A stretch of DNA of 64,000 nucleotides from Paraspadella gotoi (taxonomy: Eukaryota > Animalia > Chaetognatha): NCBI GenBank assembly GCA_051294375.1, contig CM119267.1, forward strand, positions 9,263,709 through 9,327,708. Reading direction: 5' to 3'. Within the stretch, counting starts at the first letter, position 1. Each line of letters opens with the position of its first letter. The notes beneath the pieces were generated by a model. The model did not search any database and was not told the DNA's origin. It saw only the letters and a list, made by a program, of their open reading frames with translations. The translations under genes were made by a program, and so were the position numbers. This document shows, piece after piece, positions 1-64,000 of this stretch.

Positions 1-615
1 GCCTCTTTCGTTCCGATCGCCGTTGAGTCGGGCTTTTCTTTTCACCACGCCCAACACGGCTACGTTTTTCTCAAGAGGTGGCTCTCCTCTGAGCCAGACT
101 CTTATCCCCCCTTCGCCAATCATTACCTCGGGGTCGCTGGTTTAGTGATCGACGAGTCGCTCGATCACCTGCTGGTCGTTCGCGAACGCTTCGCATACTC
201 CAATCTATGGAAACTCCCGGGTGGAGCCGCCGAAAATGGGGAAAACATCGAGGACGTGGCGGTTCGCGAGGTGTTGGAAGAGACTGGCGTCGAGACCGAG
301 TTCGTCGCCGTCCTCTGCTTTCGTCAGATACACCAGTTCCGTCACGGATGCTCCGACTTCTACTTCGTCTGCCACTTACGACCGAAGACGATCGAGATTA
401 AAAAGTGCGACGTGGAGATAGAAGAGTGTCGATGGATGAATTTGGACGAGTATTTGAAATTGGAGTCGACGACAGCTATGAACAGATTCTTTGTCGAGTG
501 TTATTTAGATTATTGCGAGCAAAAGAAGTTTAGAGGATACATTGGGAAAAAGAGTGTTTATCATCATATTAACAAAGTCTATTGCAACATTTTTAGCATT
601 CATGGAGAAAAGTGA
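1..615 (+). CDS. NUDT6: Nudix hydrolase 6-like (5' end outside window)
   Basis: Frame open from base 1 (GFSFHHAQHGYVFLKRWL...PPFANHYLGVAGLV); Nudix box GGAAENGENIEDVAVREVLEETGV; FGCSDxYF-like motif. Confidence 0.85.
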   Translation, partial: ASFVPIAVESGFSFHHAQHGYVFLKRWLSSEPDSYPPFANHYLGVAGLVIDESLDHLLVVRERFAYSNLWKLPGGAAENGENIEDVAVREVLEETGVETEFVAVLCFRQIHQFRHGCSDFYFVCHLRPKTIEIKKCDVEIEECRWMNLDEYLKLESTTAMNRFFVECYLDYCEQKKFRGYIGKKSVYHHINKVYCNIFSIHGEK

Positions 616-751
616 GGTTCGCTGATTTTTCGATTTCTCATTTTTATATTGAAAAGCAAACTGGTGGTTATAGTCGAATAGTATAATTTTTTCTTACCTT
701 TTCATTTTTCTCTTGACATGTCAATAGACTTTAAAAAGCCAGTAAATTAAA

Positions 752-1295
752 ATGTCAAGACTTATCAACTTTAGTCAAATTTGTCACCTCCGGCCTAATG
801 GGTTATATACATCTTACTTATCTACCTCCAACTTCATGAGTTCCACGACGCATCAACCTGTAGGTTCATCATCGGATCATCTAGCCAAAGGTAAATTCCT
901 TTTAGACTGTAGTCACTAGTCAGTGTAGTCACGACTGAAGGAGCAATGCTTAAAGGCGGGGTGAACTTATGCAATGCCCGACTATAAGACGTCTCCAAAG
1001 CAATCTATTATTTTCGACGGTAGAACGGATTTTTACGATTTTTTTTTCTTTTTTAGCCAAAAGATGGCTGCGCCTTCGTGTCGCCGGTGCTCTCTTGATT
1101 GGGGCTCTGGGAATATACGCCACGGCTCAATTCGCCAAATTCATGGATAAAGATAGCCAACCGCTCGAGTCTCAAATGGGCGATCACCAATCTCTCGACT
1201 CCGATGGAAATAAGCCAGAGAAAAATTTGGAAGCCGAAAAAGAGAAAAAATCTCGACATCGTCATTATCCTATTGTGTTGGGACCTAATCGTTGA
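752..1295 (+). CDS. Small single-TM protein of unknown function, 2 exons (752-890, 1057-1295)
   Basis: ATG at 752, GT donor at 891, TTTTAG acceptor at 1056 joins in phase; one hydrophobic helix RVAGALLIGALGIYATAQF. Confidence 0.55.
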
Positions 1296-1448
1296 TATTA
1301 TTCTATTATTTTACATATTTTTGTGATTTTAATGCGATTTAACTAAATGAAACTTTTATTTTATGTTCAATTTTATTTTTACTTTTTACTTTTTATTTTC
1401 GTTGTCCTAAAAAGGCGTCATAATTTTGTTCCGACTGCAACCAAGATA

Positions 1449-2390
1449 ATGGACTGTCAATCCCTTCTTCGTTTGGCCTCGGTCCTCGTTCCCCTCTCCC
1501 TTCTCCTCTTCCTCTTTCGACGAAGAAAGCGCGAGAGCCCCTTGAGTCTACAAGGACGCGTCGTTGCTGTGACCGGCGCCAGTTCGGGTCTGGGCGCCTC
1601 TTGCGCCAAACTCTTTCATTCTATAGGCTGTCGGGTGGTTCTTTGCGGTCGGGATGTGGCTGCGCTGGAACGCCTCGCCGTGGCTTTCGACCAGGAAGAT
1701 TCCAATTCCTTCGTGGCGCGACATCGTCCTAAGTGCGTCCACCTTGATCTCGCCGACTACGCCTCGGTCAAGAGTTCGGCCGAAGCCATCGCCTCCGCTT
1801 TTGGTGCAGTAGACATTCTGATTAACAACGCCGGAATCAGTTACCGCGGAGAAATCCGCGACACTGACGTCGCGGTGGACGTCAAGCTCATGACTGTAAA
1901 CTACTTGAGCCAAGTCGCTCTCACTAAGGCGTTGTTGCCGCGATTGCTCGACCAAGCGGAAGGCCAGCGTTCCCACATTGTCTCGATCAGCAGCGTTCAA
2001 GGAAAGATCTCCATTCCCTTTCGCTCCGCCTACTCTGCCTCCAAGCACGCGCTCCAGAGTTTTTTCGACTGCTTGCGTGCCGAAATGGCGGCGGAGTGTC
2101 TATCGATTCACGTGGTTAGTCCTGGTTACATGAAGACCAACCTCTCCATCAACGCGGTTACGGGTGACGGCGCTACATACGGTGTCCTCGACGAAACGAC
2201 GGCCTCCGGCGCCTCTCCGGACGACGTCGCTCGTGACGTTGTCGACTGTATTCTTCGGGAAAGACAAGACTTCGTTGTAGCGCCGGTCCATGTGAGGTTA
2301 GCGATTTACTTAAGAGCCCTGGTCCCTGCGCTTTATTTCCTTCTTATGAAAAAGAGGGCTTTAAAATATTACAAACAGAAAAACATGTAA
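1449..2390 (+). CDS. DHRS7B: Short-chain dehydrogenase/reductase, DHRS7B-like
   Basis: N-terminal TM anchor, TGASSGLG, NNAG, YSASK catalytic motif, SSVQGKISIPFRSAY. Confidence 0.85.
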   Translation: MDCQSLLRLASVLVPLSLLLFLFRRRKRESPLSLQGRVVAVTGASSGLGASCAKLFHSIGCRVVLCGRDVAALERLAVAFDQEDSNSFVARHRPKCVHLDLADYASVKSSAEAIASAFGAVDILINNAGISYRGEIRDTDVAVDVKLMTVNYLSQVALTKALLPRLLDQAEGQRSHIVSISSVQGKISIPFRSAYSASKHALQSFFDCLRAEMAAECLSIHVVSPGYMKTNLSINAVTGDGATYGVLDETTASGASPDDVARDVVDCILRERQDFVVAPVHVRLAIYLRALVPALYFLLMKKRALKYYKQKNM

Positions 2391-2469
2391 ATTATTCTTA
2401 CCAACTACAATGTTTTGGTTTTCCATTAACATTTCATTTGTTTAACTTAAGAATAATTATACTGAGAAA

Positions 2470-3552
2470 ATGGGGGAAAGTGATTTAAATATGACTGCAA
2501 TGGAGGCTGCCTACGAACGTATTAAAAAATCTGATTTTGTGATTCGTACTCCGATTTGGAAAGACTGCCTCAAACGATTCCATAAGGTTTTGCCCCATGT
2601 CGGCGGTAAAACAAGGTTACACCTGAAACTAGAAAACTGTCAAATCGGCGGGTCGTTTAAGACGAGGGGTGTCGTCAATCAAGTTGGTTCCATGAATCGG
2701 GTCCCTAGTGTCCCCACCCTCGTTACAATGTCGGCCGGTAACTATGGAAAAGCGTTTGCATGCGTCTTGAAGCAGAACGGTATCGATGGTCATGTTGTGA
2801 TGCCTAATTCCGTTCCTCCTGAACGAGTTAGTCTAATACGATACCTCGGATGTCAAGTCGAGCAGGTGAAATTATACACAGAATATTTAATTATACACAG
2901 AATATTTGGTTTTGGTTTAAAAGTGAACGAAATGTTTGAAAAATTTTAGGTCGACGTTAGTCTTTTGCAAGAAACTGTCAACAAACGAGTGGCAGAAGAC
3001 GGTATGAAATTTCTTCACAGTTACGACGATATCGATTTAATCGCGGGTCATGCTTCCTTGGGCCTTGAGATTTTAGAGGACTGCCAACCTGAAATAGTTG
3101 TAGTGTGCTGCGGTGGCGGGGGTTTGCTGGCCGGCGTCGCCGCCGCTCTAAAATCCAAGTACCCCAACTGCACGGTTTATGGGGTTGAGCCGGAAGGGGC
3201 TCCGACAATGCATAAAAGTTTTGAAAAGGGCGAACCGTTTTCTTTGCCCTCTGTAAAGAGCATCGCGTCCGGATTGTCTCCGCCCTATGCCGGCAAAAAA
3301 TGTTATCACATTTGTTCGAAGTTCGTGAAAAATATTTTGCTTGTAAGTGATGATGATTTGAAGGAAGGTGTGAGGATCTTGTACGAGGCCGGCATAGTCG
3401 CCGAACCCGCCGGCGCAGCTGCCTTCACCGCTTTGCTGAAAAATAAAATTCCGAACGTGGATGGAAAAGAAATTTGTGTGGTTATAACCGGATCTAACAT
3501 GTCTCCTCCACAGCTTTTGGAATTGACGGGTGAGTCTGGTGATTTTATTTAA
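2470..3552 (+). CDS. PLP-dependent serine racemase/threonine dehydratase-like enzyme, 2 exons (intron ~2866-2950)
   Basis: LKLENCQIGGSFKTRG PLP-lysine motif, SAGNYG, CGGGGLLAG, AEPAGAA. Confidence 0.85.
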
Positions 3553-3733
3553 AGTTAGCAGAAGTACCGCAGCGTATAACGTGTATTGTTTAATATGTAA
3601 ATCGAACCGAGTTTGAATTTTTTTTTTATTATATTTAAGTAAATAAATTGATGGTTAAAGATAGTGTTAATTATTACAGATTTCCGTTGTCCAGTTAGAA
3701 ATAAATTCTTAGTAACATTATTTGGATGAAAGC

Positions 3734-4372
3734 ATGGCATCTTTTCGAGTGGCTTCGTGGTTGATTAGGGCCTGTTCCACCAGCGCCAAGTCTGAGACGA
3801 CCAAATTGGTTAAAGCTCCAATCCAAGTTTATGGCCAAGAAGGGCGGTACGCTCATGCGTTGTACAGTGCCGCCCACAAAGAAAATGCTCTCGACAAGAT
3901 GGAAGGCGATTTGAAGACAGTTCAGACCTTGTTCAAGGACAACCCTGATCTCAAAGGCTTTCTTATGAATCCAAGCGTACAGAGAACAGACAAGACCGAA
4001 GTCGTTAAGGCCGTCCTAGAGAAAAGTTCGATTTCCCATCTCGTCAAAAACCTGTTCATCGTCATGGCAGAAAATGGTGCCTTGCCAAAGACTAATAACA
4101 TCATCGCAGCTTTCACAAAGATCATGTGCGCCAAGAGAGGCGAGGTGGTTGTTGTCGTCACCACGGCCAAAGAGTTGAGCTCTTCTCAGATGAGCAGCCT
4201 GCAGGACGCACTTAGGGGATTTGTTAAAGAAGGTGAAGTGATTAAACTCTCGACTTCCGTCAATCCTGCGCTCGTCGGAGGCATGACCGTCAGCATCGGA
4301 GATCGTTTTATCGATATGTCAATCGCATCCAAAATAACCACCTACAAGAACTTGATTAAGCAAGACTTGTAA
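3734..4372 (+). CDS. ATP5PO: ATP synthase subunit OSCP
   Basis: APIQVYGQEGRYAHALYSAA and VNPALVGGMTVSIGDRFIDMSIASKI match OSCP; intronless. Confidence 0.95.
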   Translation: MASFRVASWLIRACSTSAKSETTKLVKAPIQVYGQEGRYAHALYSAAHKENALDKMEGDLKTVQTLFKDNPDLKGFLMNPSVQRTDKTEVVKAVLEKSSISHLVKNLFIVMAENGALPKTNNIIAAFTKIMCAKRGEVVVVVTTAKELSSSQMSSLQDALRGFVKEGEVIKLSTSVNPALVGGMTVSIGDRFIDMSIASKITTYKNLIKQDL

Positions 4373-4574
4373 TCATATGTTCTTATATTAAGTGAAGACG
4401 ATGTGTGTGCTTCTTTTTCCGGGCGTGAAGTAGTCTATTAATCTATACGTACTTTTATGAGATTATCAGAATGAAATTTAATAATTTCGTTCATACATTT
4501 ATGGAGATAAGATTTATTGCATGACATGTTTTATTTCTCTACTTGTTCTTACAGGATGCGAACTTTTTTTAAAA

Positions 4575-6089
4575 ATGGATTCTGAAATTGTTTATCAAGC
4601 ATTATTGACGCTTTTTACGAAGAGGGCTTTCCTCGAGGAATGGCGAATTATTGTGGAGAGCGATTACAGAATCATTCTTGAGAAACGCCTTGCATTCCCT
4701 TTCCGAAAAAGCCATCGTGATTCGGATTCGCTGGCTGAATTCGCGGAAAGAGATGACCTTAATCTCTTTCATCTAGACGTCAAACCTCTGCCGGAATCGG
4801 AAACTCGACCCGATTCGCGACTGGATTCACTTTTAGAACCCATCGTAAAACGGGAGAAAGTTGATGCTAATGACAGCGGAGTTGAATGGAGCGGATCGAG
4901 TCCGGACGGCGACGTCATTGTTCCCAATCTCGAAATACTAGATCCGGACGAAGAAGCTCCTTCGACGGAAATCGCTGAGGAATCAGAGATCAATTCCCCT
5001 GAACCTTTATCTCCCACTGGCCAATCAATGCTAGAAAAACCAAAACTGATTAAGAAAACTTCCAGGACAAAAAAAGTCTTGAAACGAAGCATCAAGAGAA
5101 TCGTCAAAAAGGAATGCCCTCTATGCAAAACTTCCAATTACGGCAACAAATATCTCCGGACCCACATCAAAAGGTGTCATCCGGAATTTCTGACCGAGGA
5201 CGAAAAACGAGAAGAGGCCGACCGGGAACTCTCGGAGAGGACGTGCACCATATGCGCCAAGGTTTTCGTGACCAAAGGAGGACTCACTGTTCACATGAAG
5301 GAGATTCACCTCCGCGACAGCATCGACGATCGCACGTGTCCTCACTGCTTGAAGGTCTTGTCATCAAAACGGAGAAGGGAGGAACACATTGCGACCCTGC
5401 ACGACGAAGGTCGTGTCGGTGGGCCCTTTCCTTGCGACTATTGTGGAAAACCTTTCGGTACGAAAGATAAGCTTCGGATCCACAAACAGCGAATGTGTCC
5501 CGAAAATAGAACCGCTGCCATTTGTTCGGTCTGCGGAAGAACTTACGTCAATCCCAAGAGTCTTCGGTTGCATCTGCTACAGGAACACCCAGAAGACTAC
5601 AAACCGGAAAACGACAGCGATAGACGGCTACTTAACCTGAAGACGGCTTGCTATATTTGCGGAAAGGAGATGAGGAGGATGAGTTTGAAACACCACATTG
5701 CTCACGTGCATCAGCAGATTCAACGAACTTTCGGTTGCAAAATCTGCCAGGAAAAGTTCACCTCGTTCTCTTTATATAACGCACATTTAAAAGAGGTTCA
5801 TAGACACGTGCCAAAAAGGAAAGCGTGTGGAACATGCGGAAAAACTTTCAGCACTTGTCACAGTCTCAGAAATCATGAAAGGGGAGTTCATCTCGGTATT
5901 CGTTATCAGTGCGAATTGTGCCCCTCGAGTTTTTTCTCTAAAAAGGACAGGAAAGATCATGTTAACAGCGTGCATCTTGGCAATAAACACCAATGTCCAG
6001 AATGTCCTCGCGAATTCAATCGTCGATCGGAACTAAATCGACATAAGCGGAACGTTCATAACATTAACACTACGCCTACTGTTTCTTAA
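4575..6089 (+). CDS. Multi-C2H2 zinc-finger protein
   Basis: About 10 CxxC...HxxxH repeats in the C-terminal two thirds. Confidence 0.9.
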   Translation: MDSEIVYQALLTLFTKRAFLEEWRIIVESDYRIILEKRLAFPFRKSHRDSDSLAEFAERDDLNLFHLDVKPLPESETRPDSRLDSLLEPIVKREKVDANDSGVEWSGSSPDGDVIVPNLEILDPDEEAPSTEIAEESEINSPEPLSPTGQSMLEKPKLIKKTSRTKKVLKRSIKRIVKKECPLCKTSNYGNKYLRTHIKRCHPEFLTEDEKREEADRELSERTCTICAKVFVTKGGLTVHMKEIHLRDSIDDRTCPHCLKVLSSKRRREEHIATLHDEGRVGGPFPCDYCGKPFGTKDKLRIHKQRMCPENRTAAICSVCGRTYVNPKSLRLHLLQEHPEDYKPENDSDRRLLNLKTACYICGKEMRRMSLKHHIAHVHQQIQRTFGCKICQEKFTSFSLYNAHLKEVHRHVPKRKACGTCGKTFSTCHSLRNHERGVHLGIRYQCELCPSSFFSKKDRKDHVNSVHLGNKHQCPECPREFNRRSELNRHKRNVHNINTTPTVS

Positions 6090-6426
6090 AGTATTTCCAC
6101 GTCATGCATTCGATAATCGATAGTCTCTATGAGGTTAGGAATTTTGACGCACTAGGTACAGTTACAGAATTTGGAGTTAAACATATTACATAAAGCGTTT
6201 TATTTTCTTCGTTTTATTTGGACTATTGTTTTATTTTGGCTGTTGATTTTAGAATATATTGCTACGGCTAATCTTTTTTTATCCATTCTTGCGATTTATA
6301 TTTATCGTCGTAAAAATTCTTTACAGACGTTTTGCTTTCAAGTCGAATCAATGAACATGTGATTTTCTCGTATTACCGTTACTCTGTCGGAAAATGTGAT
6401 TGAAAACTGTAAAAGTAAAACTGAAG

Positions 6427-9375
6427 ATGGCTTCTTTCGTTCGGCCGTGCCGAAACATATCGTTCGTTTTACTTTTTGTTGCGGCAAAGGTTCTATTAGT
6501 CACCGATGCTTTGCTATGCAAATGCGACGTTTGCGAGAATCACACGTGTGAAGTTGACGGAGGAGTTTGTTTCACGACGGCTATGAAAAAGGTAAGATTT
6601 TTTTTTTATAATCTCTTTTTATATCGCCAGACGGGCTAAGGCCCATCTTGGGCCAGATATTGGTTCGCTTCTGCTTCCTTGTGACTATCGTCGTCATGTT
6701 TTTTTACGATTAAAAATTGTAAAAGTGTGTAACCATAAGAAATTATAAATTTAGATTTGGTTATCATCATGTTTTATTTAAAAAACAATTATTTATTTAT
6801 TTATTTATTTATTGAAAAGATAGTAATTATTGTTATGTGTTAGTGACAGAGCCGTTCAATATAAGCAGTCCCTGAGCTTCGGATCAGGCTGTAACACCAT
6901 GTTACAGGCGGGTTAAGCGCACCGTCCTTAACTGCAAGGCGACCACCAGGCTAGAACCCCGGACCTTTGGGTTGGGAGGCAAAATGACTTGCCTCCGGCA
7001 CCAAAGGCCGCTGATGAACGTTTGGTAGGTTTTTTAGTCCACTGTGGCAGCAAGACTTAAAGCTGCCTCACTGATGTCCGTCCTCAGCCTCGTCTCAATG
7101 GCTGAGCAGGCTAAATCATCTCATTCCATCCGTGCGTCCCGGGTTCAATCCCTGGGTATCCCGGTTCTGGCTTAAATGTGACGGTGCCGGTATAAACATG
7201 CCAGTGACAGGAGGCGGTCACTGAGGGTCCGCAGCCCCTACGCGAGTTGGTGAGATACCCCGCGCCCCGGGTATCACAGGCTATCCTCCCGTTGCCATAC
7301 CACCATATTATTTATATAAAAAAATAATAAAATTATAATTTATTCTTATAAAAGTGTGATAATAAAGTTTGTTTTATTTGTGAATAATAACTTATCGCGT
7401 CAATGAATGATTATCATCATATCAATACTGATTATCATAGCATCAATAATGATTATCATCGCATCAATAGTGACTATCATCAATTATTATTATATCAATT
7501 ATTATCACAAATCATTCTTTTTTTCCCTGATTTTTTCATTAACTTTCTTTGATAGTAACGTCTGGCGAGATCACTATACATTTAAGATTTTTTAAAATTG
7601 TTTACATAATTATATTTATTAAATTTAAGTCAAACGACGTCCTGGAATTCGGATACAGGTGCTTTGAAAAAAATCATATATTTCCGCCTCAAAACCCAAT
7701 ACTTTGTCAAAACTCTAAAACGACGGAGAGCACGTTCAGCATTCTGGTAGTTTGTTAAACATTAGTCACAATTCCATTTCACTCAGAAATTAAAACGATT
7801 TTCTAATGGATTTCAGTGCTGCAATTCTCACGATTATTGCAACGTGAATCTACACCCTCGTCTGACTAACCCGGAAGCGTCACCTGCGTCGGCCCTTACT
7901 GCGGATCAGTTTGCGCATGAACGCTGGTCCACGTCGGAGATGACGTTGATGGTCGCAGCCCCGATTTGTATAATTTGTGTTTTAGTTACGGCTCTGTTAT
8001 TGATGTTGCATTGGAGGCGAATGAAACAAAGCTACATGCACGTTCCTCCAGTTCCTTACGCAGGTGACGATGAGTGAATCTTCAAATAAATTGTACAATG
8101 TACATACTACAATTTTTCTCCTCTTAACTAATTTTTTTTCCCAGATTTTTGTCCCGGAGTCCAGGCGCGTCACGGAACCACGAGTCTTTCTGCGTTGGTC
8201 GACGACTGGGTTCACTCAGGATCGGGATCTGGTCTCCCTCTTTTGGTTCAGCGAACTATCGCCAGAACCATTCAGTTGCAGGTTTGTGTACACACAGAGA
8301 GGAAAAATTAACGCTTGTAATTTTCTAGCTTAAGTGGTGCGCGAACCAAAGACCGCTTGCAGTCAGGCAGATTGCGATATTGAATGTTGTCACACCATAG
8401 TTATTTTTTTAGGAATGCATCGGGAATGGGCGTTACGGACAAGTTTGGCGAGGATGTTGGCGTGGCGAGTTTGTGGCGGTAAAAATATTTTCGTCTCGCG
8501 AGGAGCAATCGTGGTTCCGAGAGGCGGAGCTTTATCAAACAGTTATGTTGAGGCACGAAAATATATTGGGTTTTATCGCCGCAGATAATAAAGGTAAAAC
8601 CATTCAATACTTGTTTTTGTTGCTACTTTTCTGCAATTATAGTTTTTCCTACTCTTCAGACATTGGCCTTTGGACGCAATTGTGGCTCGTCACAGAGTAC
8701 ATGGCTAACGGGTCTCTGTTCGATTATTTGAGTGGCCACACCGTTGACGTAACCGTCCTGTGCCGCATGAGCGCCTCGGTGGCGGCAGGGCTGGCGCACC
8801 TTCATATGGAGATCGTGGGTGCCCAGGGCAAGCCCGCTATAGCTCACCGCGACCTAAAGTCAAAAAATGTGCTGGTCAAACCCGACCTTTCTTGCTGCAT
8901 AGCGGATTTGGGCCTCGCTGTTAGGTACGATGCCGCCGAGGATTCCATAGATTTGGCCCCGAATCACCGCGTCGGCACGACTCGTTACATGGCGCCTGAG
9001 GTCCTCGACGCGTCTATTAATGCGGTCCAATTCGAGTCGTTTAAACGCGCCGACATATACGCTCTTGGCTTGGTATTATGGGAAATTGCTCGTCGTACAC
9101 GTTACGGCGATTTCTGGGAAGAGTTCCAATTGCCCTTTTTTGACTCGGTGCCGCCCGATCCAACCGTGGAAGAGATGCGAGCCGCGGTCTGCGCGCGGGG
9201 GGTACGTCCCTCGGTGCCCAACAGGTGGATCAGTCACCCCGTCCTCTCGCAAATGACCAACCTTATGAAGGAGTGCTGGAGGGGCAACCCAGCCGCCAGG
9301 CTCACTGCTCTGCGCGTCAAAAAGTCTTTGGCTGTGATCGCGGGATTTGACGACGCAAAAAAAATGGCTGTGTGA
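6427..9375 (+). CDS. TGFBR1: TGF-beta/activin type I receptor (ALK4/5/7, Baboon-like), ~6 exons
   Basis: Signal peptide, Cys-rich ectodomain, TM helix, GS box ([17 protein letters not shown]), kinase with L45 loop [23 protein letters not shown]. Confidence 0.9.
6813..7049 (-). mobile_element. Solo copy of the tRNA-headed LTR (family A)
   Basis: Reverse complement closely matches 11945-12177; TG...CA ends on the minus strand. Confidence 0.7.
7072..7305 (+). mobile_element. tRNA-headed structured repeat (family B; SINE- or solo-LTR-like)
   Basis: A-box TGGCTGAGCAGG (7099), B-box GGTTCAATCCC (7142); 3' module 7200-7305 homologous to minus strand of 21402-21507. Confidence 0.55.
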
Positions 9376-10154
9376 CGGAAACAACAAATATTTCTTCAAC
9401 CTTTTGCGTCGTTATATTTGATAGCATAATGAACCATCACAAGCTCGTTCAAAAAAAAAAATTGTATGCATGTTATTGTGACAAATATTTTATAAAAATA
9501 TAAATGAGGTCTGACGAGACATATCAATATGATTTTTAATACAAACTTTATTTTCTAACAACAAAATTAAAATGTTTAAAAATTATAACAACGATTTAAA
9601 CCGTTTATGGCTTGCCAACGGCAAGTTCAACTCTTAAATGTTTACAACTATATGTATCTACTATTTTAACGTAAACATTTTTACTTTTTTTGGGACTTCC
9701 CCCAATGATACTTATGCTTATGTTTACGTAGAATTTTCACAGCTTTAAGTTTGTAGATCATAGGGCAAACACGGATTCCTTTCTGGTATCTATACTAATT
9801 TTATTCCCTCACACTTTTATGGCGGTGTACTAAAGGGAGGGATACGTGATCTCTCGCATTTTCGAGTTAAGTTCAGTAAATTTGCCTGGGAAGGAGAATC
9901 CGATTCTCCTGCTCGTCTTTCAAACGATTTACATTTTGCTAAACAAACTCATTTTATCCATATTACACGTGGAAAAATGGAGTTGGGACTGTTTGCAATT
10001 TTTATAACGTTCTGTTATTTTTTTCCTCTTTTGTGTCCAAAGTGATACCTTAGTCTTAATTTTGCCGCTTTTTTATCGCTTTATACCTTAGAATCCATTA
10101 ACTTTAAAACTGATCTTCCGTGAAATGAAGCCAATAGGACTCTAGACGCAAGTC

Positions 10155-10460
10155 ATGGGATTGATAAGTAGAATTATAAAGATTCAGTTGGCCGAGAGGG
10201 AAAAAGAACCGAAACGACGAATCTTCAAAAAAGAAGTTTCTTTCGCCGGTTGGTATCGCTCACGATTTTACAACTGGCTGAAACTACAATCCGCGACGAA
10301 GCAGCTGTTAACCCTCAGCGGTATTTTTTTTGTGGTGTCCAGCAGTTTTGCGTATTATTTTAAGGCCGTAAGGCCGACCAAACGAAGACAAAAGGTAAAG
10401 GAGGAAGTACAATCGCTGATCGAATCTCGGGGTTGGGGAAAACCGGAGAAGACAGAATGA
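10155..10460 (+). CDS. Small single-TM protein (101 aa), upstream cistron overlapping CSKMT
   Basis: ATG in good context (GTCATGG), TM helix LLTLSGIFFVVSSSFAYYF followed by a basic segment. Confidence 0.6.
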   Translation: MGLISRIIKIQLAEREKEPKRRIFKKEVSFAGWYRSRFYNWLKLQSATKQLLTLSGIFFVVSSSFAYYFKAVRPTKRRQKVKEEVQSLIESRGWGKPEKTE

Positions 10461-11173: not shown

Positions 11174-11526
11174 ATGTTAAATGATTTGATTGGAATTAAT
11201 TAAATTGTTGGACTCCCAGAACTCATTCGTTGGTTTCAAGTTTTGGGTGGTTTCAATCAGCCATTGTAATTGTATTTTATAAAATTCAGCTGTCGGTCGA
11301 CAAATTTAAAATTTATTCCAGCTCACGGACTCAAACACGAACATTTAGAAACGAAGAAAAAAGGAAATAAACTTCAAAACAGTGGATATTGCGGAACTGA
11401 TGTTATTTATTCGTTGATTTTTTTTCATTTTTAGCAGTTAAAAATAAATAAAAGTTGAAAATATATTAGTGGTTAAATTTTTTTTATCAATCATAGATGA
11501 TTGTCGATATGATTAAAAAATTTACA

Positions 11527-13328: not shown

Positions 13329-13448
13329 CCTTATGCTTTTAAGATTTTTTAAAATAGAAAACCAATATTTCGATCTTACTTGACAGATCATCGTTCAGGG
13401 TAAAAGTGAAATGAGGGAAAAAAAGAGAGCTAAGAAAGAGAGAGAGAG

Positions 13449-16771: not shown

Positions 16772-21031
<4,260 letters not shown>

Positions 21032-49627: not shown

Positions 49628-49766
49628 TCATGCAAGCTATAAACAGCCTTGTGTGACGTTGTCAAAATTATATTTTTGAAAATGTTTGAAATAAATTGTT
49701 GTTTTGGTTCTTATTTTAGTAAAATGTAAAATATTCTTTCGCGCGAAATATAAAATTTGGAACGAA

Positions 49767-51888: not shown

Positions 51889-51980
51889 TGAGTCCTGACG
51901 TCTTTTCAAATGATGTTACCTTTGTTTTAGATATAACCTCTTTTTTGGGACAGTTGTTGGTGGTTGTCAAAACAAAAAAA

Positions 51981-53286: not shown

Positions 53287-53371
53287 TATGTTAGATATTT
53301 TTTTTCTTGAAAGAATAAGGACCAGACCACAACGCACTTGTCCTTAAGGACTAAGGACCAGACTTAACGGA

Positions 53372-56300
53372 ATGAAGTCTTTCCATCCTCATCGTTTCTT
53401 AGTCCCTCGATATTTCGCTTGTCCTAAAGCTGGAATGTCAAATTTGTTAGGTTGGGTTTAACATTTTTTTTTACACGCGTATTCCTAGAAATTTTGACAA
53501 AATACTCCATCGTTTTTAGATAATGCGCCTTTCCGCTATGGATCCCTCGTCACCATCTTGTATTCTAACAAACTTCCCCCGGCCTCGTGTCATCACATCA
53601 AACTCCGACGAGGTGCTTTTTTCTACTCTGATTTCGGAAAAATTTCTCACGAGGTAAGTGATATAATAATTGATTGTAATATTTACAGTCCAGTTTTTTT
53701 CTATGCACTAAAACTGTGGCACAGGCCATTATGCGTATGCAAGATGGTGATGTCGTCAGGGTGGGTGATGACGGCTTTTCTTGTCTCATCATGGTTCGAC
53801 GGACGAGACTGGAAGATTTTTTTCAAAAAAGGGTTGGCCCTTCCGCCGCAAATTCGAGGAGATCCGTACATCCCTACGACTTAGTCAACCTTTGCCACAC
53901 GATGCGCTTGAAGGTGTTCACTGCACACTGCTGCTTTAGTAATTTAGCGAGTAAAAAAAAATTATTAACAAGAATGGTAATTCCAATGAGTTGCGCCGCA
54001 GTGACTTTATTTTCACGTGTATTTTCCTATGCATTAGAATTTTGTCTTTTTTTTATAGTCTTAGGATTTCCTGAAGTCACTTAAATTTGACGACCGACAG
54101 ACCGACCGAAAATTGACTTATAGAGTTGCTCCGCGAATATTCGCGTCGCGACTATAAATTCTAAAGTCCTGACAAAAAGAAATAAGATGAGCTTAAATTC
54201 TACTAGGCTGGTGACCGGGTGTTGGAGGTGGGAACGGAGCATGCATTGTTTTCGCTGCTCCTTTCAGACATCGTCGGAGACAGTGGGCACGTCATTTCGA
54301 CCTCATTAGTAAACGTCAAAGAAGATGTCTTAAAGCTGATTTTAGATTGGTTGTCGAGGGACGGCATTGAGGACTCTAACGAAAGGTTGGGAATGGATAA
54401 ATGTAGTATGATAAGTTTCTTTTTTATATTTATCAATTTGTTTCCAGGTTTTCCAATTTAACTTTGCACTCGTTCGATGTCAACGACTCTATTAGGGCAA
54501 GACGAGAAATTCGGACGGCGTTAAACTCTAAACGAAGACTAAGCGATTTAGTTTTCCGTTCCGGTGATTCTGTTGAAAACGACGATGAAAACGACGATGC
54601 GGAATTCCCGCTTTTGGACGCCGTCACCGTCGTCAAAATGCCGCCTTTGTCGCTTCGTCACATGTTTATCAGCATACAAAAATATTTAAAAACAGGTTTG
54701 TATGAAATTGGTACAACCAATATAAAAATTATCCATCCATTTAATAAATAAGCTATCTTGTCCCTGACTTTGGACAGGATTTGGTGGTTTAAGGCCTCCA
54801 TCACACTTACAAGATAATAACATAGCAGGTTTCTGCAAGCTTTCAATCAAGACTCTCTCAGTCTTATTTTTTCACTCCCAGTGAACCTGGCTTCCCTATC
54901 AATGAAGTGGTATAATATTTCAAAGAATGTTTCAATTGTATGAAAAGACCACGTCCTATTATTATTTAATGTTATTTATTTAATAATTATTAATATTAAA
55001 CGACATTTTTTTGATTTTCACTTTCCCAAATCAGGCGGTTCGATCGGTTTCATCCCTCTGGACGTTTCTGATATTCGATTCGTTAATGATTTCATCCACG
55101 AACTCCGTCTTCCGTTATTTGCGGAATGTTTTCAAGAACCCGCCCGATTTCGTCTCCACAACAGTCTCGAATCCGCTGAGTCAGCAGCTAAAGCTGCTTC
55201 CTGTTTTACGACCGCATCAGCTCCAGTCCTAAAGACTGATCGTGATCAATGCGATGAAGATTCTTTCGACTTACAAAGCTCCAATTGGTGGGACAATGAA
55301 TTTTGGCGAAAAAGACGACGGGGATTTCCGAAAACATTCAGGCATAGTAAGTACAATGTATATTTGGATATTGTTTGAAGCCAATTCGTTAATTCCTTAC
55401 TTTCTAATTAATTTTTCATAAAATTCCTTCGTTTTTGATTTGACTTGGCAATGAGTGGAGAAACGTTGCCTTCAAAATCATCTAAAAAATTTTAAAAAGT
55501 TGTATTAATAACCTTTATCTAACTTTTTAAGCTCTACCAGAATCTTTTAAAAAAAATTGAAAAATTGATAAAAAAATTCTAAACTTATTGTAATAAAATA
55601 ATCTTTAAATGCTTCCGTGCGCTAATCAATAAGATAAATTTTAAAAATTATTTTTATTTTCATATTCTCTAACAATCTCTTAACCATTATTTATTCAAGA
55701 GAACTTCTAGTTTTCAACCTGTTCCGGTCTATTGGTTAGATTATTAGATCGTTATAATTAAAATAGGTTAGATAGTTAAAAAAATATATTTTAAGATTTT
55801 ATTGATTCAATTTTGATTATCTTGATTAAATTAAAGCTAGTTAGGCTTATTTTTATGTCATTTTTTTAAAATTCCAAGAGCTTTCAGAACACGGTTCCTT
55901 TTTACATCGATTTAATCGGCATGGAGTGCACAAGAATGAGATGTCCCGGGATACGTTTCCGGACCTTTGGGCTACACAAAAAAAGGGTAAACAAATTTTT
56001 CCTAATGACAGTTTTTTTATAAATTAATATTAAAATTAGCTATATAAAATCAATAAAGTAGAATAAAAAAAATTAAACCATTTTTTAATTTTTTTTATTC
56101 TACTTTATTGATTTTATATAGCTAATTTTAATATTAATTTATAAAAAAACTGTCATTAGGAAAAATTTGATTACCCTTTTTTTGTGTAGCCCAAAGGTCC
56201 GGAAACGTATCCCGGGACATCTCATTCTTGTGCACTCCATGCCGATTAAATCGATGTAAAAAGGAACCGTGAGAAGATATTAACATTGATATTTTTTTGT

Positions 56301-56851
56301 AAAAGTTTTTAAAATAATGTTCAGAAAGTTAAACAAAAACAAAAAAAGATTTGAGTTTCAAAATGAAAAACGATTTTTAAGGCAACTTTTCTCCGTTCAT
56401 TGCCAAGTCAAATTATAACCAATTAATATAAAATCATTTATATTAATTATATTAATATATATATGTAATATATATTAATATATTTTGGTTTTTACTACAA
56501 AAAAATCTTTGAGATTAAAATCTTCGCAGGTTTGCAAATGACGATTCTTTTCTAGCGGCGGGTTTCAGTGTGTCACCTTGTAGAGCTTACACAATACACA
56601 TATATACTACTCTCACAGAGAAACTTTTTTTTTTCAAGAAAACTTTATTATTATTTACAACAGCCAGTTCTTTGCCAATGATGCCTTTAAAGTGGGCGGA
56701 ACGCGAACGAAGTCCCTCATGGATTGTCAACTTTGTTAAAGTCACAGAATACGAATTCGTATTCGAGGCTGAGAAAGATACAGAAAAATTTTGGAGAGAC
56801 AAAGTCATGGAAGAAAGGAAGAAGATCGAGAAAGATTTGGCCGCGGATTGA
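53372..56851 (+). CDS. TRMT61/GCD14-like paralog 3 (degenerate active site), ~7 exons
   Basis: Exon 1 (53372-53450) joins 53520 in phase; SDFGKISHE, VHPYD, RVLEVGTEHA, LKTGG; last exon PSWIVNFVKVTEYEF resembles paralogs 1 and 2. Confidence 0.65.
55438..56413. mobile_element. Non-autonomous DNA transposon (outer element)
   Basis: ~40-bp imperfect TIRs ATTTGACTTGGCAATGA.../...TCATTGCCAAGTCAAAT. Confidence 0.65.
55890..56271. mobile_element. Foldback MITE, Chapaev/CMC-like
   Basis: Near-perfect palindrome with ~188-bp arms, CACGG...CCGTG termini, AGAA 4-bp target-site duplication. Confidence 0.88.
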
Positions 56852-56923
56852 ATTTTTAAAAATCCCCTTTATTATTTTTTATCTTATTCTTTTTCTTCAA
56901 GTTTTATTAAATTCTGTCCGAAT

Positions 56924-58838
56924 ATGTCTTCTGACGAGGACGTTGACTACAGTTTCGATGACGATCACGCCAATATTGACGACAGTGAAGAAGCTCGGCG
57001 CCGATTGGATTTTAACGAAAGCGCCCCAGACGACGCGAGTTTGAGTCGCCCCGGCAACGACATTAGCGAATTGGATCCGGAGAAGGTTGGGGGCGAGAGA
57101 CGCTATCGAACGGATGAACTTCCGATTCTGTTTCAAAAACTCAAAGTTTTCTGCGACGAAAACCGAAACACTAAAATTGGGGAGGAGAAGCGTAAGCTAG
57201 AATTAGAGGCATTTCTCCAACTTCGTCAGGAAAATACGAATTCATCTCACAATGCCGACGCCCATATCATCCCTAAGTTTTACGACACGCTGCCCAAGGA
57301 GGAGGATGTTTTGAAAGCTAAATTGCGTGACGACGCGGGGACTTTGTTGCTGCAGAAGAAAAGCGGCGAGATTGTGTCTTCGGAGGCTTTGGAGGCGCTG
57401 TTGCCCATTCTGGATCGTCATCAATCCCCGCCCATTGTTGGTGACGAGAAGATGATGAACTTTAACGATTTTATCGCCGCGGGTGAGTCGAAACAAAAGT
57501 TCATGCGCGTCGTGGTTCATGTACGTAATTCGTTAGTCTTCCTTCAGGCAAGGAGGCCGACCAATGCTGCGCCCACTACTTCAAGGCAAGGATTTTCGCC
57601 AAACTTTTGGAGAAAGATCCTTTTGGGAGGGTTTCTATCAACACGTTCTTTAAGTACATCATGAGACGCGAGTGGCTAAAACAGGCGCACATTGGCCTTT
57701 CTCTTTATGACACTTCGGGCCAAGGATATCTACTGGAGAGCGACCTGGAGACGTACATTTACGAACTCATTCCCACAATGCCGCAGTTAAAACATCTACA
57801 AGACATGTTTCTGCCTTTTTACGTCTGCACTGCTACTCGGTATGAAAATATTAGACCCCATTTCTGCGTTCGATTTATTCAATTTTCTATTGTGGCTGTT
57901 GCCATGCAATATGCTTTTTTGCTTCGACAGAAAATTTATCTTCTTCCTCGATCCCAAACGGAGCGGAAAAGTACGCATCAGTGAAATCCTCATCAGTGGT
58001 TTCCTCGACGACCTTCTCGAGCTCCGCGAAGAAGAGGTTCCCAATGAAAAACTTCAAACCAACTGGTTTTCTGCCGCGTCAGCCTTCCGAGTCTACAGTC
58101 AATTTCTTTCTATGGATCAGGATAGGAACGGAATGCTGTCTCGAGACGAGTGAGATAAACTTTGCGAGTTGCTTTGTTATTTCAATTGTTGTACATTAAA
58201 TCAAAACGTTTTCTAGATTAGCGTCTTACGGAAATGGAACGCTTACCAACGTGTTTTTGGATCGTCTATTTCAAGAGTGTCTCACTTTTGGAGGAGAGAT
58301 GGACTATAAGATGTATATGGATTTCGTGCTGGCAATGGAAAATAAGGAACAGCCCAGATCTCTGGCGTTTTTTTTCAGGTGATATCACGGTCGCTGGTCT
58401 GCTCTATCAAATTTTATCCTTTAAATTCACGTTTTCGCGAATTTTTGTAGAATTTTCGACATTCGTCATAAAGGATATCTGGATGCCTTTGACTTGAACT
58501 TTTTCTTTCGCGATATTCGGGAACAATTGGCTCAGCGTGGGGAGGAACTTGTGACTTTTGAAGATGTCAAGGACGAAATCTTCGACATGGTCAGATGATT
58601 ATTTATATTTTTTCACACGTCAGCATTGCAGCCAACGTTTCTGTTTTGATTCATGTGTTGGTAACACTTTCAGGTCAAACCAAAGCGTGGTGACAAGTCC
58701 CTCATTTTCTTGGACGATTTGATTGATTCGGGTCAGGGAAAAACTATTGTCTCCATCCTGACTGACATCCATGGCTTTTGCGCTTATGAAAATCGTGAGC
58801 GGATCGCCGCTGACCAATGCGTCGACGACAACGAATAA
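56924..58838 (+). CDS. PPP2R3C: PP2A regulatory subunit B'' gamma, multi-exon
   Basis: IPKFY, IGLSLYDTSGQGYLLESDLE, FYVCTATRKFIFFLDP, NWFSAASAFRVY, EF-hand MDQDRNGMLS. Confidence 0.93.
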
Positions 58839-58965
58839 AAACCCGAGTCCTCATCTACCATCTGTGATTTTTACCTAAAGTTTGTTTTCATCCGCATTAT
58901 GATTCCAAAGAAATAAACATTTTAACCTTTGCTACCTCTTTTTTTTATTTTTGAGTCAAGAAAGC

Positions 58966-60168
58966 ATGTCCGTCCCTGTCTTTCAACGATTGTACCAAAA
59001 ATTAGCGTTAGGATGGAGGTTTTATTCCTTCTCCTCCGAGAAGTCTTTTCGGCCGACAAGGGAGCATTTGATCAACCAAATTAGAAAATTAGAAGCTAAC
59101 AATGAAAATCTTCGAAAGTTTATCGAAAAGCGATCGTCCAGTGTCGCTCAAAAGGTGACGACTGGTTTGGCTCCGAAAGTTAACCGACGCTACATCGCTC
59201 TGCTCGTCTCCTATATCGGTTGGGACGAGAGTAGGGAAGAAGAATTTAACATTTCAGACTCGTTACGATCCGCACTGATAAAAACCAATCTCGTCGACGA
59301 AGATGAAAAGGTCGATATTCGTTCTGGAGACGTGGCTCTCGGCGTCAGCGCCGTGGATCAAATCCTCGCCCTCCGACTAAAGACCAACTTGGGCAAAGGA
59401 GTAGGAGTCGAAGTGACGGGAGACGCCGCTTTTGGAAAAACCGGGGACGACGAGGAAATTCGTTACCCGCTCGTTCTCAACAAGGCCCTTCCAGGAAGCG
59501 TGCGAGTTCTGGCCTGGGCGCCTATTACGGCCGACTATGACCCGCGCATTGGTGATCGAACGCGGGTGACTCATTCCTGCTTCTTTCCTAAGGGCGATTT
59601 AGACCTCGAGTCGATGCGTCGATTGGCCGCCGATGCGGAGCTGGAGAGCGACGTCGATGTCGTCGTTGACGATTTCCGTGCCGAATTCCCGTGCAAATCC
59701 AACTTCGAATCCGATTTAGACTTGTGCGAAGCGAAGGTCTCTGGTCGCGGGCTGACGTCCGAATGCGCTACATCCATCGTTGGCCGGTTACTTCGTCGAT
59801 GCTCATCGGACGAGGGCACCGAGGACGCCTGTGTCAAGGTATCTCTAACTAGTTTGACAAGGATCGACGCTGATACGGAACTCCATTGGTATTACGATCA
59901 AGTGGCTCTCGTCGACTGCGCCCTACATTTTCAAAGCGCCCAAATGGAATATGCGATCAAAGCCGCCATCGTCGATCAAACTCTGACGAAGGTCAAGCAA
60001 GAACTTGAATCTAAGGGAGACGTTGGAGAAGGCGTTTTTTGCAAACCTTATCGTTCCCTTTTTAAGGATTCGGTGACTCCTTTGCCGAGAGGATATTTGA
60101 CAAAGGGCTATGACAATTACTTAGATTACATTTACAAACGGAGAGCGCAAGAGAGTTGGAAAAAATAA
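58966..60168 (+). CDS. TruA/PUS3-like pseudouridine synthase paralog, catalytic motif degenerate
   Basis: RYIALLVSYIGW, GVSAVDQI, EIRYPLVLNKALPGSVRVLAWAP, FFPKGDLDLESM follow PUS3; RTD is replaced by DVA. Confidence 0.8.
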   Translation: MSVPVFQRLYQKLALGWRFYSFSSEKSFRPTREHLINQIRKLEANNENLRKFIEKRSSSVAQKVTTGLAPKVNRRYIALLVSYIGWDESREEEFNISDSLRSALIKTNLVDEDEKVDIRSGDVALGVSAVDQILALRLKTNLGKGVGVEVTGDAAFGKTGDDEEIRYPLVLNKALPGSVRVLAWAPITADYDPRIGDRTRVTHSCFFPKGDLDLESMRRLAADAELESDVDVVVDDFRAEFPCKSNFESDLDLCEAKVSGRGLTSECATSIVGRLLRRCSSDEGTEDACVKVSLTSLTRIDADTELHWYYDQVALVDCALHFQSAQMEYAIKAAIVDQTLTKVKQELESKGDVGEGVFCKPYRSLFKDSVTPLPRGYLTKGYDNYLDYIYKRRAQESWKK

Positions 60169-60212
60169 ATTTATTTTTGTTTTCATTTTTGTTAGAGAAA
60201 GCAATTAAAACA

Positions 60213-61769
60213 ATGAATTCATTATCGGGACCGAATCTCGTGAACCTTGTAGATCATCTTCGCGAACTCGAATCGGGTTTCACTTCGATTCTTTTTGAGA
60301 CAGTCTTGAAACTCTCCACGCTCACGGACACAAGGTTAGTCGAGCGGGTTATACAGTATTGATTTCGTTCATTTGCGAATATTTAGAAGAACTTTTATTC
60401 ACAAAAATTACATGATAAATTTTAATTACTGTACGATTACTTCAACGATTTTTCCAGTGTTTTTCTACTGGTGGAGACGCCAGAGGGAAGAAAGTTTGGC
60501 GGGAAGCGACATCTCTGCGATTATTACGCGGGCCAAGGTCTCAAATCTATCGGCAATGACGTCGAGTGCAACATTGACGCCAGCGTTTCCGGTCTTAATG
60601 AGCGTTACTTAAACAGTCGATTAGCACGCCAGGTATCGTCAGTATTGGTTTTTTTTATTTGTAGTAATTTGTTAAGTTGCTTTTTAATACGTAAAGCTAA
60701 GATTTCTAATCCGATCCTCGCTCTCTCACTCGAGGACGCCGTTCAAGTTATTTCTCATGCCAATTCACTGGTGCCTCTGCCTTCATCTCTTCCATTGCAA
60801 CCGCCTCATTTATCCAACGGTACGCCCCGCTCGGTTTTGGGGGTGGCTCAGACGAACAAGAGAAAACAATCACGGCCTAAGTCGTTGTCTCGTCAAACAT
60901 TTGGATCGCCGACGAAAAGATCGCGTATCGAATCGGTCGGAGGAGGCGGGTGCGGCGCGGACGTTAACGGGACGGCGACGATTCGAGAGGCTCCTCTGGG
61001 TGCTGGTCACTCATCCCTCGACGTTGAGATAAAGACGGAAACGGAGATGCCGTGCGTCTTCGTTGGGGAGAACGATATTCGTGAAATCAGTCTCGACGAC
61101 GACGACGACGACTTCGCCAAATCTCTTGACGAGTCGTCCGACGCGCTCAACTCCAGTCTCGTTAAGATTCCTCCCAACGGACTCAACACCGACTCTATGG
61201 TTTTCGAGATCACTTCTGAATTGGACATGGTTTGTAGATCTAAGAATTTTACTAAGACTCGCTTATAATATAAGTTATATTTTTACTAATTTTCAAAGCT
61301 TCTTTTAAAGGCTTCAAACCCTTGGAGTATCAAAGACTATTTGGATCGGACCGTCAAAGCTTCGGCCATGTTGAATATGGAGGCTCCGATTGATAACCCT
61401 ATGGATCCAAGTTGCATGGAAATAGAAAGACATTCGACCTTCATGAAGCTCTTATCCTCTATACTTTACGATTCTTCGAAGGGTTCGTGACTGATGATTT
61501 TTTTCCGTTTAAACTCTCAATCGAAAATAAACTTCTATTTTCACATAGAAACGGCGATGGCGTGTCCAATTAAAATGAAGTCTCATCCTTATTCAAAAAA
61601 ATTTTTCTCCGCCGTCTACGAAGAATGGTTCACATATTTCACTAACTTAGCCGAACTTCACTCCAAGGGTTATCGTTGCCTTGAGGGTTCGCGGTCATAC
61701 AGCGTGAAAACGTTCTGTCGCAACGTAATGCAACGAAGCTTTGGATATTTTCTTGACAGAATGAAGTGA
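60213..61769 (+). CDS. Uncharacterised, probably nuclear, multi-exon protein
   Basis: Coding-like GC-rich blocks bounded by GT/AG; LLVETPEGRKFGGKRHLCDYY, NLS-like KRKQSRPK, IKTE motif; exon model approximate. Confidence 0.55.
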
Positions 61770-62709
61770 TCTACGGCCACAGTCTCTTTTTGTTTTTAGC
61801 TGATCTCATATCGCTTGCATTCCGATGTTATCTTTCTAAAAATAAACCGTCTAAGGTGAGTGGTACGCATTACGGGCCAATTTTGACAATTTTTATACCT
61901 CGCATCTCCAGTTTTATTAATAAATTATGATTTTTTTTCCGTGGCATTGAGAAGAACTGTTTCAAGAACACGAAATGCATACATGGTAGAATTCTACATA
62001 CAACGAAAAATGGGGAGGGGAGAGGTTTATTTGTACAAAATGATAAATGGTTTAAAGGTTAAGCAAAGTTTTCAACTGCTTCAACTTTTTATTTATTATG
62101 TAGTTACTATTAGATAATAAAGTGTTTCCTTTCGAAAAATACTTAATCGAATTTTTTTATTTTATGTTTTCATGATTCAAATTTCATAATTGATATGAAC
62201 AGCGCGATTATTACGATTATTTTGACATTATCATCTCGTTGCTCCATACTGCGATTGCTCAGAATTTTGAAGTCTTATTTTAGTCGATATGGTCTCTGTA
62301 CCTCAATGCAACCACCCACCCTAAAATTTTGGAGCTGTGGACGTTTTTTCTAATTATTATTTTAGTCCAGTTTATTGGTTAGTGGAAATCGAGGTAGATT
62401 TCGTAGTTAACTTCGTAATTTTGCTACTTGTGGATGAATTTGATTTTAATCTTTCTCATTTCTTTATACTCTTATCAAACAGAAACCTGTGATAATCCCG
62501 CACGTTCGTTGTGGATCTTCGAGATTTTGCTGTTTGATTGAATCTAAATTTTCAATCGTATTTTTAAACAATGTCAATGCGCATCGTTCGTACCAAAACT
62601 ATACAAACTATTGTTCAATGATCTTTTCTACGCCAAAGATTGTCGCTTCTATCGAACAAAAAAAAAAAAAAAACAGCGACGAACAACATCTCATTTTTAA
62701 AGCTAAACC

Positions 62710-64000
62710 ATGGCAGCAACTCCTCTCTGTGTCCTTCCCCCCACGTCACCCACCAAGAGCTTGCCTTCTCCTGTTCCCAAAATGAACCTCGACACCAACG
62801 TCTCCTCCGCTGCCTCCTTGACCCAAAACTCCGGATCGCTCTCCTGTCTGGACGCGCCATCTTCGCCGGGTCGCGATTTCGCCTCGCCCCACCCAATGAA
62901 TCTGGACACTCCCCACCTCTTTCTTACTTGCGGCATTTGCCGCGAATATTTTAAGGACGACCCAAAGCTTCTTTCGTGCCTCCACTCGTTCTGCGAGTCT
63001 TGCCTCCAATCTACGATGCTCGAGGGATCCCTGTCGCTGTCGTGCGCAACCTGTAAGGTTCAGTCCATTATACCGCCATCGGGCATTTCCGGTTTGCAGA
63101 CAAATTTTTACGCCGTTGATCTTCGGCGCATCCTCGACGAGGCCCGTCATTGCGCCGGGTGCGTCGTGGGCAGCGCTACTCCCGCATCTTACCGTTGCAC
63201 GGAATGCGGCCAGTCGCTTTGCAGCACCTGCTCTAAAACACATGCCTTGAAAGTTTCTGAGAATCAAGAGACTGGAGAATCGAAATCTCACAACGCCGTT
63301 GCTATTTGCAAATTGGCTATCGAGGAAGTCGTATCCAAGTTGGATGAAGAAACCGCGGTTTTTGCGACAAACTCAGATGCTCCGAGCGACATAGAAGACC
63401 CTCGGACGAATCGTCTCAAATGCCCGAGTCATAACTACGAAGAACTTTCCCTTTATTGCTCGACTTGCGAAACAGGAATATGTAGCGTGTGCGCTGACCG
63501 AGTGCACTTTGAACATGCGACAGAGACGATGAGTGACGCAATTGAGAAAGAGCGGGCAATGATGCGCGAAATGGCGAAGGCGGTGGACGCTCAGGTACCC
63601 CTCATCCGTGACACTATTGATCAAGTGAACCAGATGAAGAGTTCCCTCGCCGCCAATCTCTCCGAAGCCGAGAATAAGATTGAAGAAGCCTTCGACTCTG
63701 TTGTAAAATCCCTCAAAGAGAGACGCGACAAACTGCTGCGCGAAGCCACCGAAGCCCACGAGGCAAAGGAAAAAGTGCTTAAAGCTCAACGCGACGCTTT
63801 AGAAGCTAAATTGGCTCGCATGCTGAGTTGCTGCGAACTGACGATGTTCACACTTGAGAACGGATCCGACGCGGAAATTCTGTTGCTCCACAAACAGCTT
63901 GCCGATACCATGGACGAGTTGGCCTCTTTGGACGTCAATTTCACGCCAGAAGAGAATTACTTTCTCGGTTTTTCCCCAGGAGATTTGCCAAAGATGCGCC
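62710..64000 (+). CDS. TRIM protein (RING, B-boxes, coiled coil); 3' end outside window
   Basis: Open frame from ATG 62710: CGICREYFKDDPKLLSCLHSFCESC, CAGC...CTECGQSLCSTCSKTH, CPSH...CSTCETGICSVC, coiled coil. Confidence 0.9.
   Translation, partial: MAATPLCVLPPTSPTKSLPSPVPKMNLDTNVSSAASLTQNSGSLSCLDAPSSPGRDFASPHPMNLDTPHLFLTCGICREYFKDDPKLLSCLHSFCESCLQSTMLEGSLSLSCATCKVQSIIPPSGISGLQTNFYAVDLRRILDEARHCAGCVVGSATPASYRCTECGQSLCSTCSKTHALKVSENQETGESKSHNAVAICKLAIEEVVSKLDEETAVFATNSDAPSDIEDPRTNRLKCPSHNYEELSLYCSTCETGICSVCADRVHFEHATETMSDAIEKERAMMREMAKAVDAQVPLIRDTIDQVNQMKSSLAANLSEAENKIEEAFDSVVKSLKERRDKLLREATEAHEAKEKVLKAQRDALEAKLARMLSCCELTMFTLENGSDAEILLLHKQLADTMDELASLDVNFTPEENYFLGFSPGDLPKMR

Follow-up and report, generated by a model that had tools for sequence, protein, structure and literature searches.

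Operons whose transcripts are resolved by spliced-leader (SL) trans-splicing have been described in arrow worms, tunicates, the flatworm Macrostomum lignano and nematodes. The subject here is a 64,000-nucleotide stretch of the genome of the arrow worm Paraspadella gotoi (assembly GCA_051294375.1, contig CM119267.1, positions 9,263,709 to 9,327,708; hereafter the window), whose genes all lie on one strand and probably form several such operons. The closest described systems are those of the chaetognaths themselves. In P. gotoi, nearly half of the genes are trans-spliced and 18% lie in operons, recognized by gaps of <250 bp (PMC12460157). The 2,151 candidate operons hold 5,061 genes, a mean of ~2.4; in the parts of that paper covered here, the maximum is nine genes, in an operon that includes ribosomal, ubiquitin and proteasome genes, and signalling genes are described as depleted. 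SL-resolved operons have also been published for Spadella cephaloptera, and the leaders given in the sections covered of PMC2481426 resemble those of no other phylum. The main text of PMC12460157 does not mention ‘strand’, ‘orientation’ or ‘unidirectional’, and the covered passages of its three supplements name no operons. The main texts of the Flaccisagitta enflata and S. cephaloptera genome preprints never use ‘operon’, and the portions consulted of PMC7986045 and PMC10282587 state no operon size limits.

Tunicate operons (Oikopleura dioica and Ciona; PMC4122922) are also polycistronic, SL-resolved and, in the sections covered, reach 11 genes, but most contain only two genes, their leader is unrelated and their origin independent. 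The operons of M. lignano, for which the covered part of PMC8629364 gives a maximum of nine genes, and the SL2 operons of nematodes resemble the window in their short spacers, which contain a U-rich tract and an AG. They differ in that AATAAA is scarce in the window's spacers, and nematodes further in having SL2, chaetognaths being reported without an operon-specific leader. No report of animal operons larger than these was found in the open-access literature. The case is less new than the first-pass annotation of the window, which named nematode and tunicate operons as precedents, had supposed. With chaetognath SL operons of up to nine genes and 11-gene tunicate operons in print, the mechanism is already known in arrow worms, and it is the size and clustering of the units that are unusual and could be new.

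The window holds 33 gene models, all on the plus strand, with every hand-curated translation free of internal stops; the first-pass annotation had the strand right and counted 32. Open reading frames (ORFs) taken stop to stop show the same bias, with 11 on the plus strand and none on the minus strand at >=300 amino acids (aa), and 24 and two, respectively, at >=200 aa. Pfam matches (E<=1e-3) were obtained for 41 of 148 plus-strand ORFs of >=69 aa and for none of 140 minus-strand ORFs of >=66 aa. This asymmetry is independent of the hand-curated models and so counts against an artefact of model calling. Rfam and ARAGORN scans of the window found no minus-strand gene, a result that leaves room for short or non-coding ones. 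Twenty-five models are supported by Pfam, one by a paralogue, one by a spliced contig and six by an ORF and splice signals alone (n=33). A home-made hidden Markov model gene finder fused neighbours through the spacers and served for drafting only; its scores, 5443 for the plus strand and 1382 for the minus strand, come from training on plus-strand genes.

Stop-to-start gaps of <=250 bp separate 25 of the 32 adjacent pairs; five gaps are longer (779, 5598, 547, 851 and 940 bp), one pair overlaps by 4 nt and the strand never switches. Three plus-strand blocks stand out: block 1 (1..9375; seven genes, spacers of 79-337 bp, left end open), block 2 (16772..38918; 10 genes, spacers of 82-257 bp) and block 3 (41916..61769; 12 models, spacers of 44-238 bp). 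The first two are as originally described, and the third keeps its spacer range with one model more than the 11 first counted. We favour, with a probability of roughly 65%, the reading that the 33 genes form several long SL-resolved operons, chief among them units of 7-9, 10 and 12 genes. The number of transcription units would lie between about three and six, and whole blocks of 10-12 genes would be single units. A promoter ahead of each block would yield one polycistronic precursor, the upstream cistron would be cleaved and polyadenylated within the spacer, and the SL small nuclear ribonucleoprotein would attach a leader of 33-36 nt, ending in TTTAAA, at a U-rich tract and AG, at a median of 30 nt 5' of the ATG. 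This reading is supported by co-orientation, short spacers, enriched splice acceptors, RNA contigs and leader translations on relatives, and it agrees with the operon reading of the first-pass annotation. The likeness to the operons of P. gotoi and S. cephaloptera (PMC12460157 and PMC2481426, as far as covered) lies in the leaders that ATP5O and RPL4 relatives carry, in the spacing of two or more genes at <250 bp and in the housekeeping content.

Acceptors were scored on the 110 nt 5' of each ATG with a weight matrix built from the window's own cis acceptors. The 25th percentile of the cis acceptors is attained in 20 of the 26 short spacers. On the reverse strand, eight of the 26 attain it, and dinucleotide shuffles average 12.5, with none of 500 reaching 20. 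Raising the threshold to the median leaves 14 spacers, four on the reverse strand and 7.4 in shuffles, with three of 500 shuffles doing as well. The acceptors quoted at first pass, with AGs ending at 21109, 24414 and 41907, each proved to be the best-scoring AG of its spacer. Further scored AG sites lie at 21930, 23334, 28990, 47099, 49719 and 60195. A usable donor for a cis intron is found in only five of the 26 short spacers, so that most downstream genes are preceded by an acceptor without a cis donor, as in eukaryotic operons generally. The median stop-to-acceptor distance is ~102 nt, and in composition the short spacers resemble introns, with a G+C content (GC) of 0.29. When the spacers were searched for shared k-mers, nothing beyond U-rich words emerged.

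Contigs from run X1, taken to be RNA, bear on block 1, whose genes are, in order, a NUDIX hydrolase, a small transmembrane (TM) protein, a short-chain dehydrogenase, a PALP enzyme, ATP5O/OSCP, a C2H2 zinc finger and a TGF-beta type I receptor. The long contigs match the window without differing letters, and both introns lying fully inside 1-6800 are spliced out. Record 1 crosses the first spacer and overhangs the left edge of the window by 1840 nt; record 2 (1415-4478) runs continuously through dehydrogenase, PALP and ATP5O with both spacers retained. These two records bridge three of the six spacers examined, a contig not being the same as a single molecule. Records 2, 3 and 4 start at 1415, 4554 and 6327, each at most one base away from its spacer's top-ranked AG. 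The three acceptors are an AG ending at 1414 (1395..1415, 34 nt 5' of the dehydrogenase ATG, with a weak score of 2.0), one ending at 4554 (4535..4555, 20 nt 5' of the zinc-finger ATG, score 9.0) and one ending at 6326 (6307..6327, 100 nt 5' of the receptor ATG, score 5.1), all on the plus strand. The chance of three contig starts coinciding with AGs picked from sequence is roughly 6e-6, and no joints to an upstream exon are listed at the three starts.

Record 3 also ends at 6327, the receptor acceptor, so that the zinc-finger RNA covers the whole spacer. This recalls the S. cephaloptera RPS14-PCNA pair, where the upstream RNA ends 3 nt from the next acceptor according to the covered part of PMC2481426, the distance here being 0-1 nt at 6326-6327 as judged from contig ends. 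The TGF-beta receptor, whose place inside the cluster had been noticed at first pass, does look like a downstream cistron, since its contig begins exactly at the upstream acceptor. It sits in block 1 in contrast to the depletion of signalling genes from P. gotoi operons (PMC12460157, in part). Positions 4479-4553 have no X1 cover, and no inference is drawn from that gap. One loose end, at 3613, opens with nine letters resembling the end of a chaetognath leader; being AT-rich and part of a contig that matches poorly, it was left out of the evidence. Runs X2-X4, which are labelled as other organisms, each contributed one low-depth contig identical to the window (at 1055-1293 and 3931-4099), possibly prey or carry-over, and carry no information on leaders.

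Leader sequences were met from another direction, in marine relatives of the window's proteins. The closest of these are 55-65% identical for Ku70 (38% for named proteins), up to 67% for ATP5O (at most 50%) and 88-92% for an RPL4 exon (at most 85%). In a quick tree, the window's ATP5O falls in a clade of 17 marine rows with full support (SH-like approximate likelihood ratio test, 100), and its RPL4 falls in a clade of 49 rows (FastTree local support 100); the inputs were 75 of 120 and 67 of 120 hits, respectively. Predicted proteins of some of these relatives include translated 5' untranslated region (UTR). The N-terminus of P0023, MG-EANFYYFTCL, is the exact translation of F. enflata SL3.2, as listed in Table 3 of PMC2481426, and P0149, P0150, P0156 and P0157 begin with LSSFNLFK, the translated 3' part of SL2.0. 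When seven leader-derived peptides were compared with 259 proteins, five N-terminal matches were obtained, all in the ATP5O and RPL4 clades of the window; an internal match in P0012 was dismissed as chance. P0144 and P0156 share a common UTR translation behind different leaders, and the N-terminal extension of P0144 (MGEAYIYKTCLFK) resembles, from the protein alone, a chaetognath leader variant outside the covered Table 3 of PMC2481426. No leader translation was seen among the Ku70 relatives, the SL2 motif has no match in the window with up to two mismatches allowed, and a metagenome scan for ATP5O relatives gave 70 loci, none close at full length (best 50%). The two gene trees place the window with bearers of published chaetognath leader translations, so that the proteins by themselves make a chaetognath origin very likely; sponge, tunicate, nematode and flatworm origins were weighed as well and given up when the leader proved to match chaetognath forms. 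Relatives of ATP5O, fifth in block 1, and RPL4, seventh in block 2, are by the same token SL trans-spliced.

The leaders on the relatives, the three contig starts at an AG without an upstream-exon joint and the Pfam asymmetry, which does not hinge on gene models, make it very improbable that trans-splicing is absent altogether. On that account, the genes would have ordinary capped starts, or 5' UTR introns spliced in cis, in a compact region, or else the pattern would come from model calling. What speaks for it is the lack of a directly seen leader in X1, the usable donors in five spacers and the six models with neither homology nor RNA support. The missing leader may be explained by assembly breaking or clipping where several leader forms join the genomic path.

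Several observations weigh against the operon reading. At the AG sites, where the first-pass annotation had suggested looking for a leader, contigs start at three acceptors, but no leader letters were seen on those contigs (records 2, 3 and 4), with seven of 44 loose ends displayed and with short branches liable to be clipped in contig assembly. The RNA nature of X1, in which 0.68 of the words of 21400-31390 are present, is a guess; its contigs were compared with 1-6800 only, that is six of the 32 adjacencies, all in block 1 and from one run, and a contig spanning two genes does not prove one transcript. Acceptor enrichment is moderate, windows inside introns also passing the threshold in 16 of 40 cases, and AATAAA occurs in just six of the 26 short spacers. 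Leaders are carried by relatives only, one of 16 for ATP5O and four of 48 for RPL4, in trees from which named chaetognaths, rotifers, tunicates, nematodes and flatworms are all absent. Genes outside operons, moreover, receive an SL as well: in P. gotoi, about half of all genes are trans-spliced and 18% are operonic (PMC12460157, in part).

The last point lends some credit to a set of closely spaced genes, each driven by a promoter of its own, in the spacer or in the 3' end of the upstream gene, and each trans-spliced from a short outron. Acceptors and contig starts are equally compatible with outrons, and contigs that bridge spacers could stem from read-through or overlapping UTRs. We nevertheless find this distinctly unlikely. 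The 3' UTR of the preceding gene must also fit into the median of ~102 nt between stop and acceptor, the contig of the zinc-finger gene fills its spacer right up to the next acceptor, the spacers are intron-like in composition, and separate promoters would not account for a head-to-tail arrangement in 32 of 32 adjacencies.

How far each operon extends depends on the long gaps. The receptor gene is followed by a 779-bp gap (9376..10154, plus strand), and record 4 is 2404 nt long, of which 100 nt of 5' UTR and 1563 nt of coding sequence (1663 nt) leave 741 nt. By this arithmetic, the gap is possibly mostly receptor 3' UTR, ending near 10116 if the record is fully spliced and colinear; retained introns could also supply the extra length. 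Were the 547-, 851- and 940-bp gaps to behave in the same way, a single unit of at least 24 intron-bearing genes would run over at least 47 kb, from 16772 to beyond 64000, adjoining another of at least nine genes (1-11173), with the sub-kilobase gaps being long 3' UTRs without promoters. The unbroken strand across all adjacencies is in keeping with one or two such giant units, as is the fair acceptor (score 5.2) of the TIM23 gene behind the 851-bp gap. A clear rise in GC and CpG is seen only at the end of the 5.6-kb gap (11174..16771), where the last 350 bp have a GC of 0.41 and 5.4 CpG per 100, as against 0.29 and 2.6 in short spacers. This is the best promoter candidate in the window, although a promoter function is predicted from composition. 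If adjacencies were independent and followed the published P. gotoi rates, the expected number of 33-gene runs in a genome would be 3e-4. Set against this, genes behind long gaps have an acceptor in two of five cases, no enrichment over the shuffle mean of 1.8, and the window was chosen for being striking. One strand throughout has a probability of 2e-10 if genes are independent and of 0.03 if six blocks are the independent units. Giant units are unlikely, without being negligible.

The density of tight spacing gives another figure. Twenty-five tight gaps in 32 have a probability of 4e-16 at the published P. gotoi rate, with independence assumed and in a window that was selected. Comparison of this value with 0.03 for six aligned units indicates that it is the size of the operons and their clustering that are in excess, which need not hold for the strand run. 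Two blocks, of 10 and 12 genes, lie within 45 kb inside a 33-gene strand run and exceed the chaetognath maximum of nine given in the covered literature. Either operons have been under-called, or they are gathered in islands on one strand. If giant units exist, housekeeping genes would be arranged in long unidirectional domains over double the size of any published animal operon found, and signalling genes would lie in giant units too, controlled post-transcriptionally. If the sub-kilobase gaps are 3' UTRs, an animal would have transcription units on the scale of those of trypanosomes, with introns in addition. The first-pass annotation had offered a single kinetoplastid-like unidirectional cluster as an alternative. 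Kinetoplastid polycistronic units nearly lack cis introns and form genome-wide unidirectional clusters between strand-switch regions. The window resembles them in that unrelated genes with trans-splice acceptors follow one another on one strand over a long distance, and differs from them in being rich in cis introns, of which the 32 models counted contain 58. Fifty-six of these are GT-AG and two GC-AG, at 25968-26037 in USP14 and 50096-50162 in NDUFB5, and the median length is 79 bp.

Ribosomal, mitochondrial, RNA-processing and ubiquitin genes predominate in the window, a content that matches that of published chaetognath operons. Names finer than a Pfam family (for example DHRS7B, COX7A, PPP2R3C, PUS3 and ALK4/5-type receptor) are tentative and go by resemblance. 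Block 2 comprises, in order and on the plus strand, ECD/SGT1, COX7A-like, histidine acid phosphatase, RPL13, USP14, TDP1, RPL4, Ku70, a WD40 protein and a PPIG-like cyclophilin. It is followed by a terminal uridylyltransferase-like gene (39466..41064, plus strand), which lies 547 and 851 bp from its neighbours. Block 3, on the same strand, contains TIM23, MEPCE/Bin3, three TRMT61B-like paralogues, PAF1, NDUFB5, an mS38/COX24-like gene, an EF-hand PPP2R3C-like gene, a PUS3-like gene and two without an assigned name; the PPP2R3C-like and PUS3-like models have no Pfam match and bear tentative names. The TRMT61B-like paralogues (45064-46942, 51981-53286 and 53372-56851) are diverged, with 26-29% mutual identity, and their presence in one block agrees with the burst of tandem duplication reported for chaetognaths. 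A RING/B-box TRIM gene (62710..64000, plus strand) lies 940 bp beyond block 3 and continues past the end of the window.

Between the receptor gap and the 5.6-kb gap, a 101-aa TM ORF and a methyltransferase gene occupy 10155..11173 on the plus strand. The stop of the TM ORF overlaps the methyltransferase ATG, at 10457, by 4 nt (ATGA), which leaves no space for an acceptor between the two, and they are possibly translated by reinitiation from a mature two-ORF mRNA. The TM ORF has no Pfam match and no Atlas match at 0.9, with small mitochondrial membrane proteins among the weaker leads.

Overall GC is ~43%, and CpG observed/expected is 0.92-1.51 in 2-kb bins; this absence of depletion across the window is consistent with the report that P. 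gotoi has lost gene-body methylation. The 5.6-kb gap holds decayed retroelement-like fragments at 13434-14950 (plus strand) without a Pfam match, which we take to resemble a Penelope-like element from a reverse-transcriptase end and a GIY-YIG motif; a 104-bp piece of them is repeated in an intron at 21544-21647. It also carries two of the three copies, 87-93% alike, of an interspersed repeat of ~230 bp (6810-7045, 11530-11762 and 11952-12180). An intronic, near-perfect palindrome of 382 bp (98%) lies at 55890-56271; its flank is 89% like part of the first intron of RPL4 (29274-29756), which has a weaker palindrome of its own, and both are likely foldback elements or miniature inverted-repeat transposable elements. 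Tandem arrays of ~20-bp units occur inside introns at 19778-20370 and 7392-7567.

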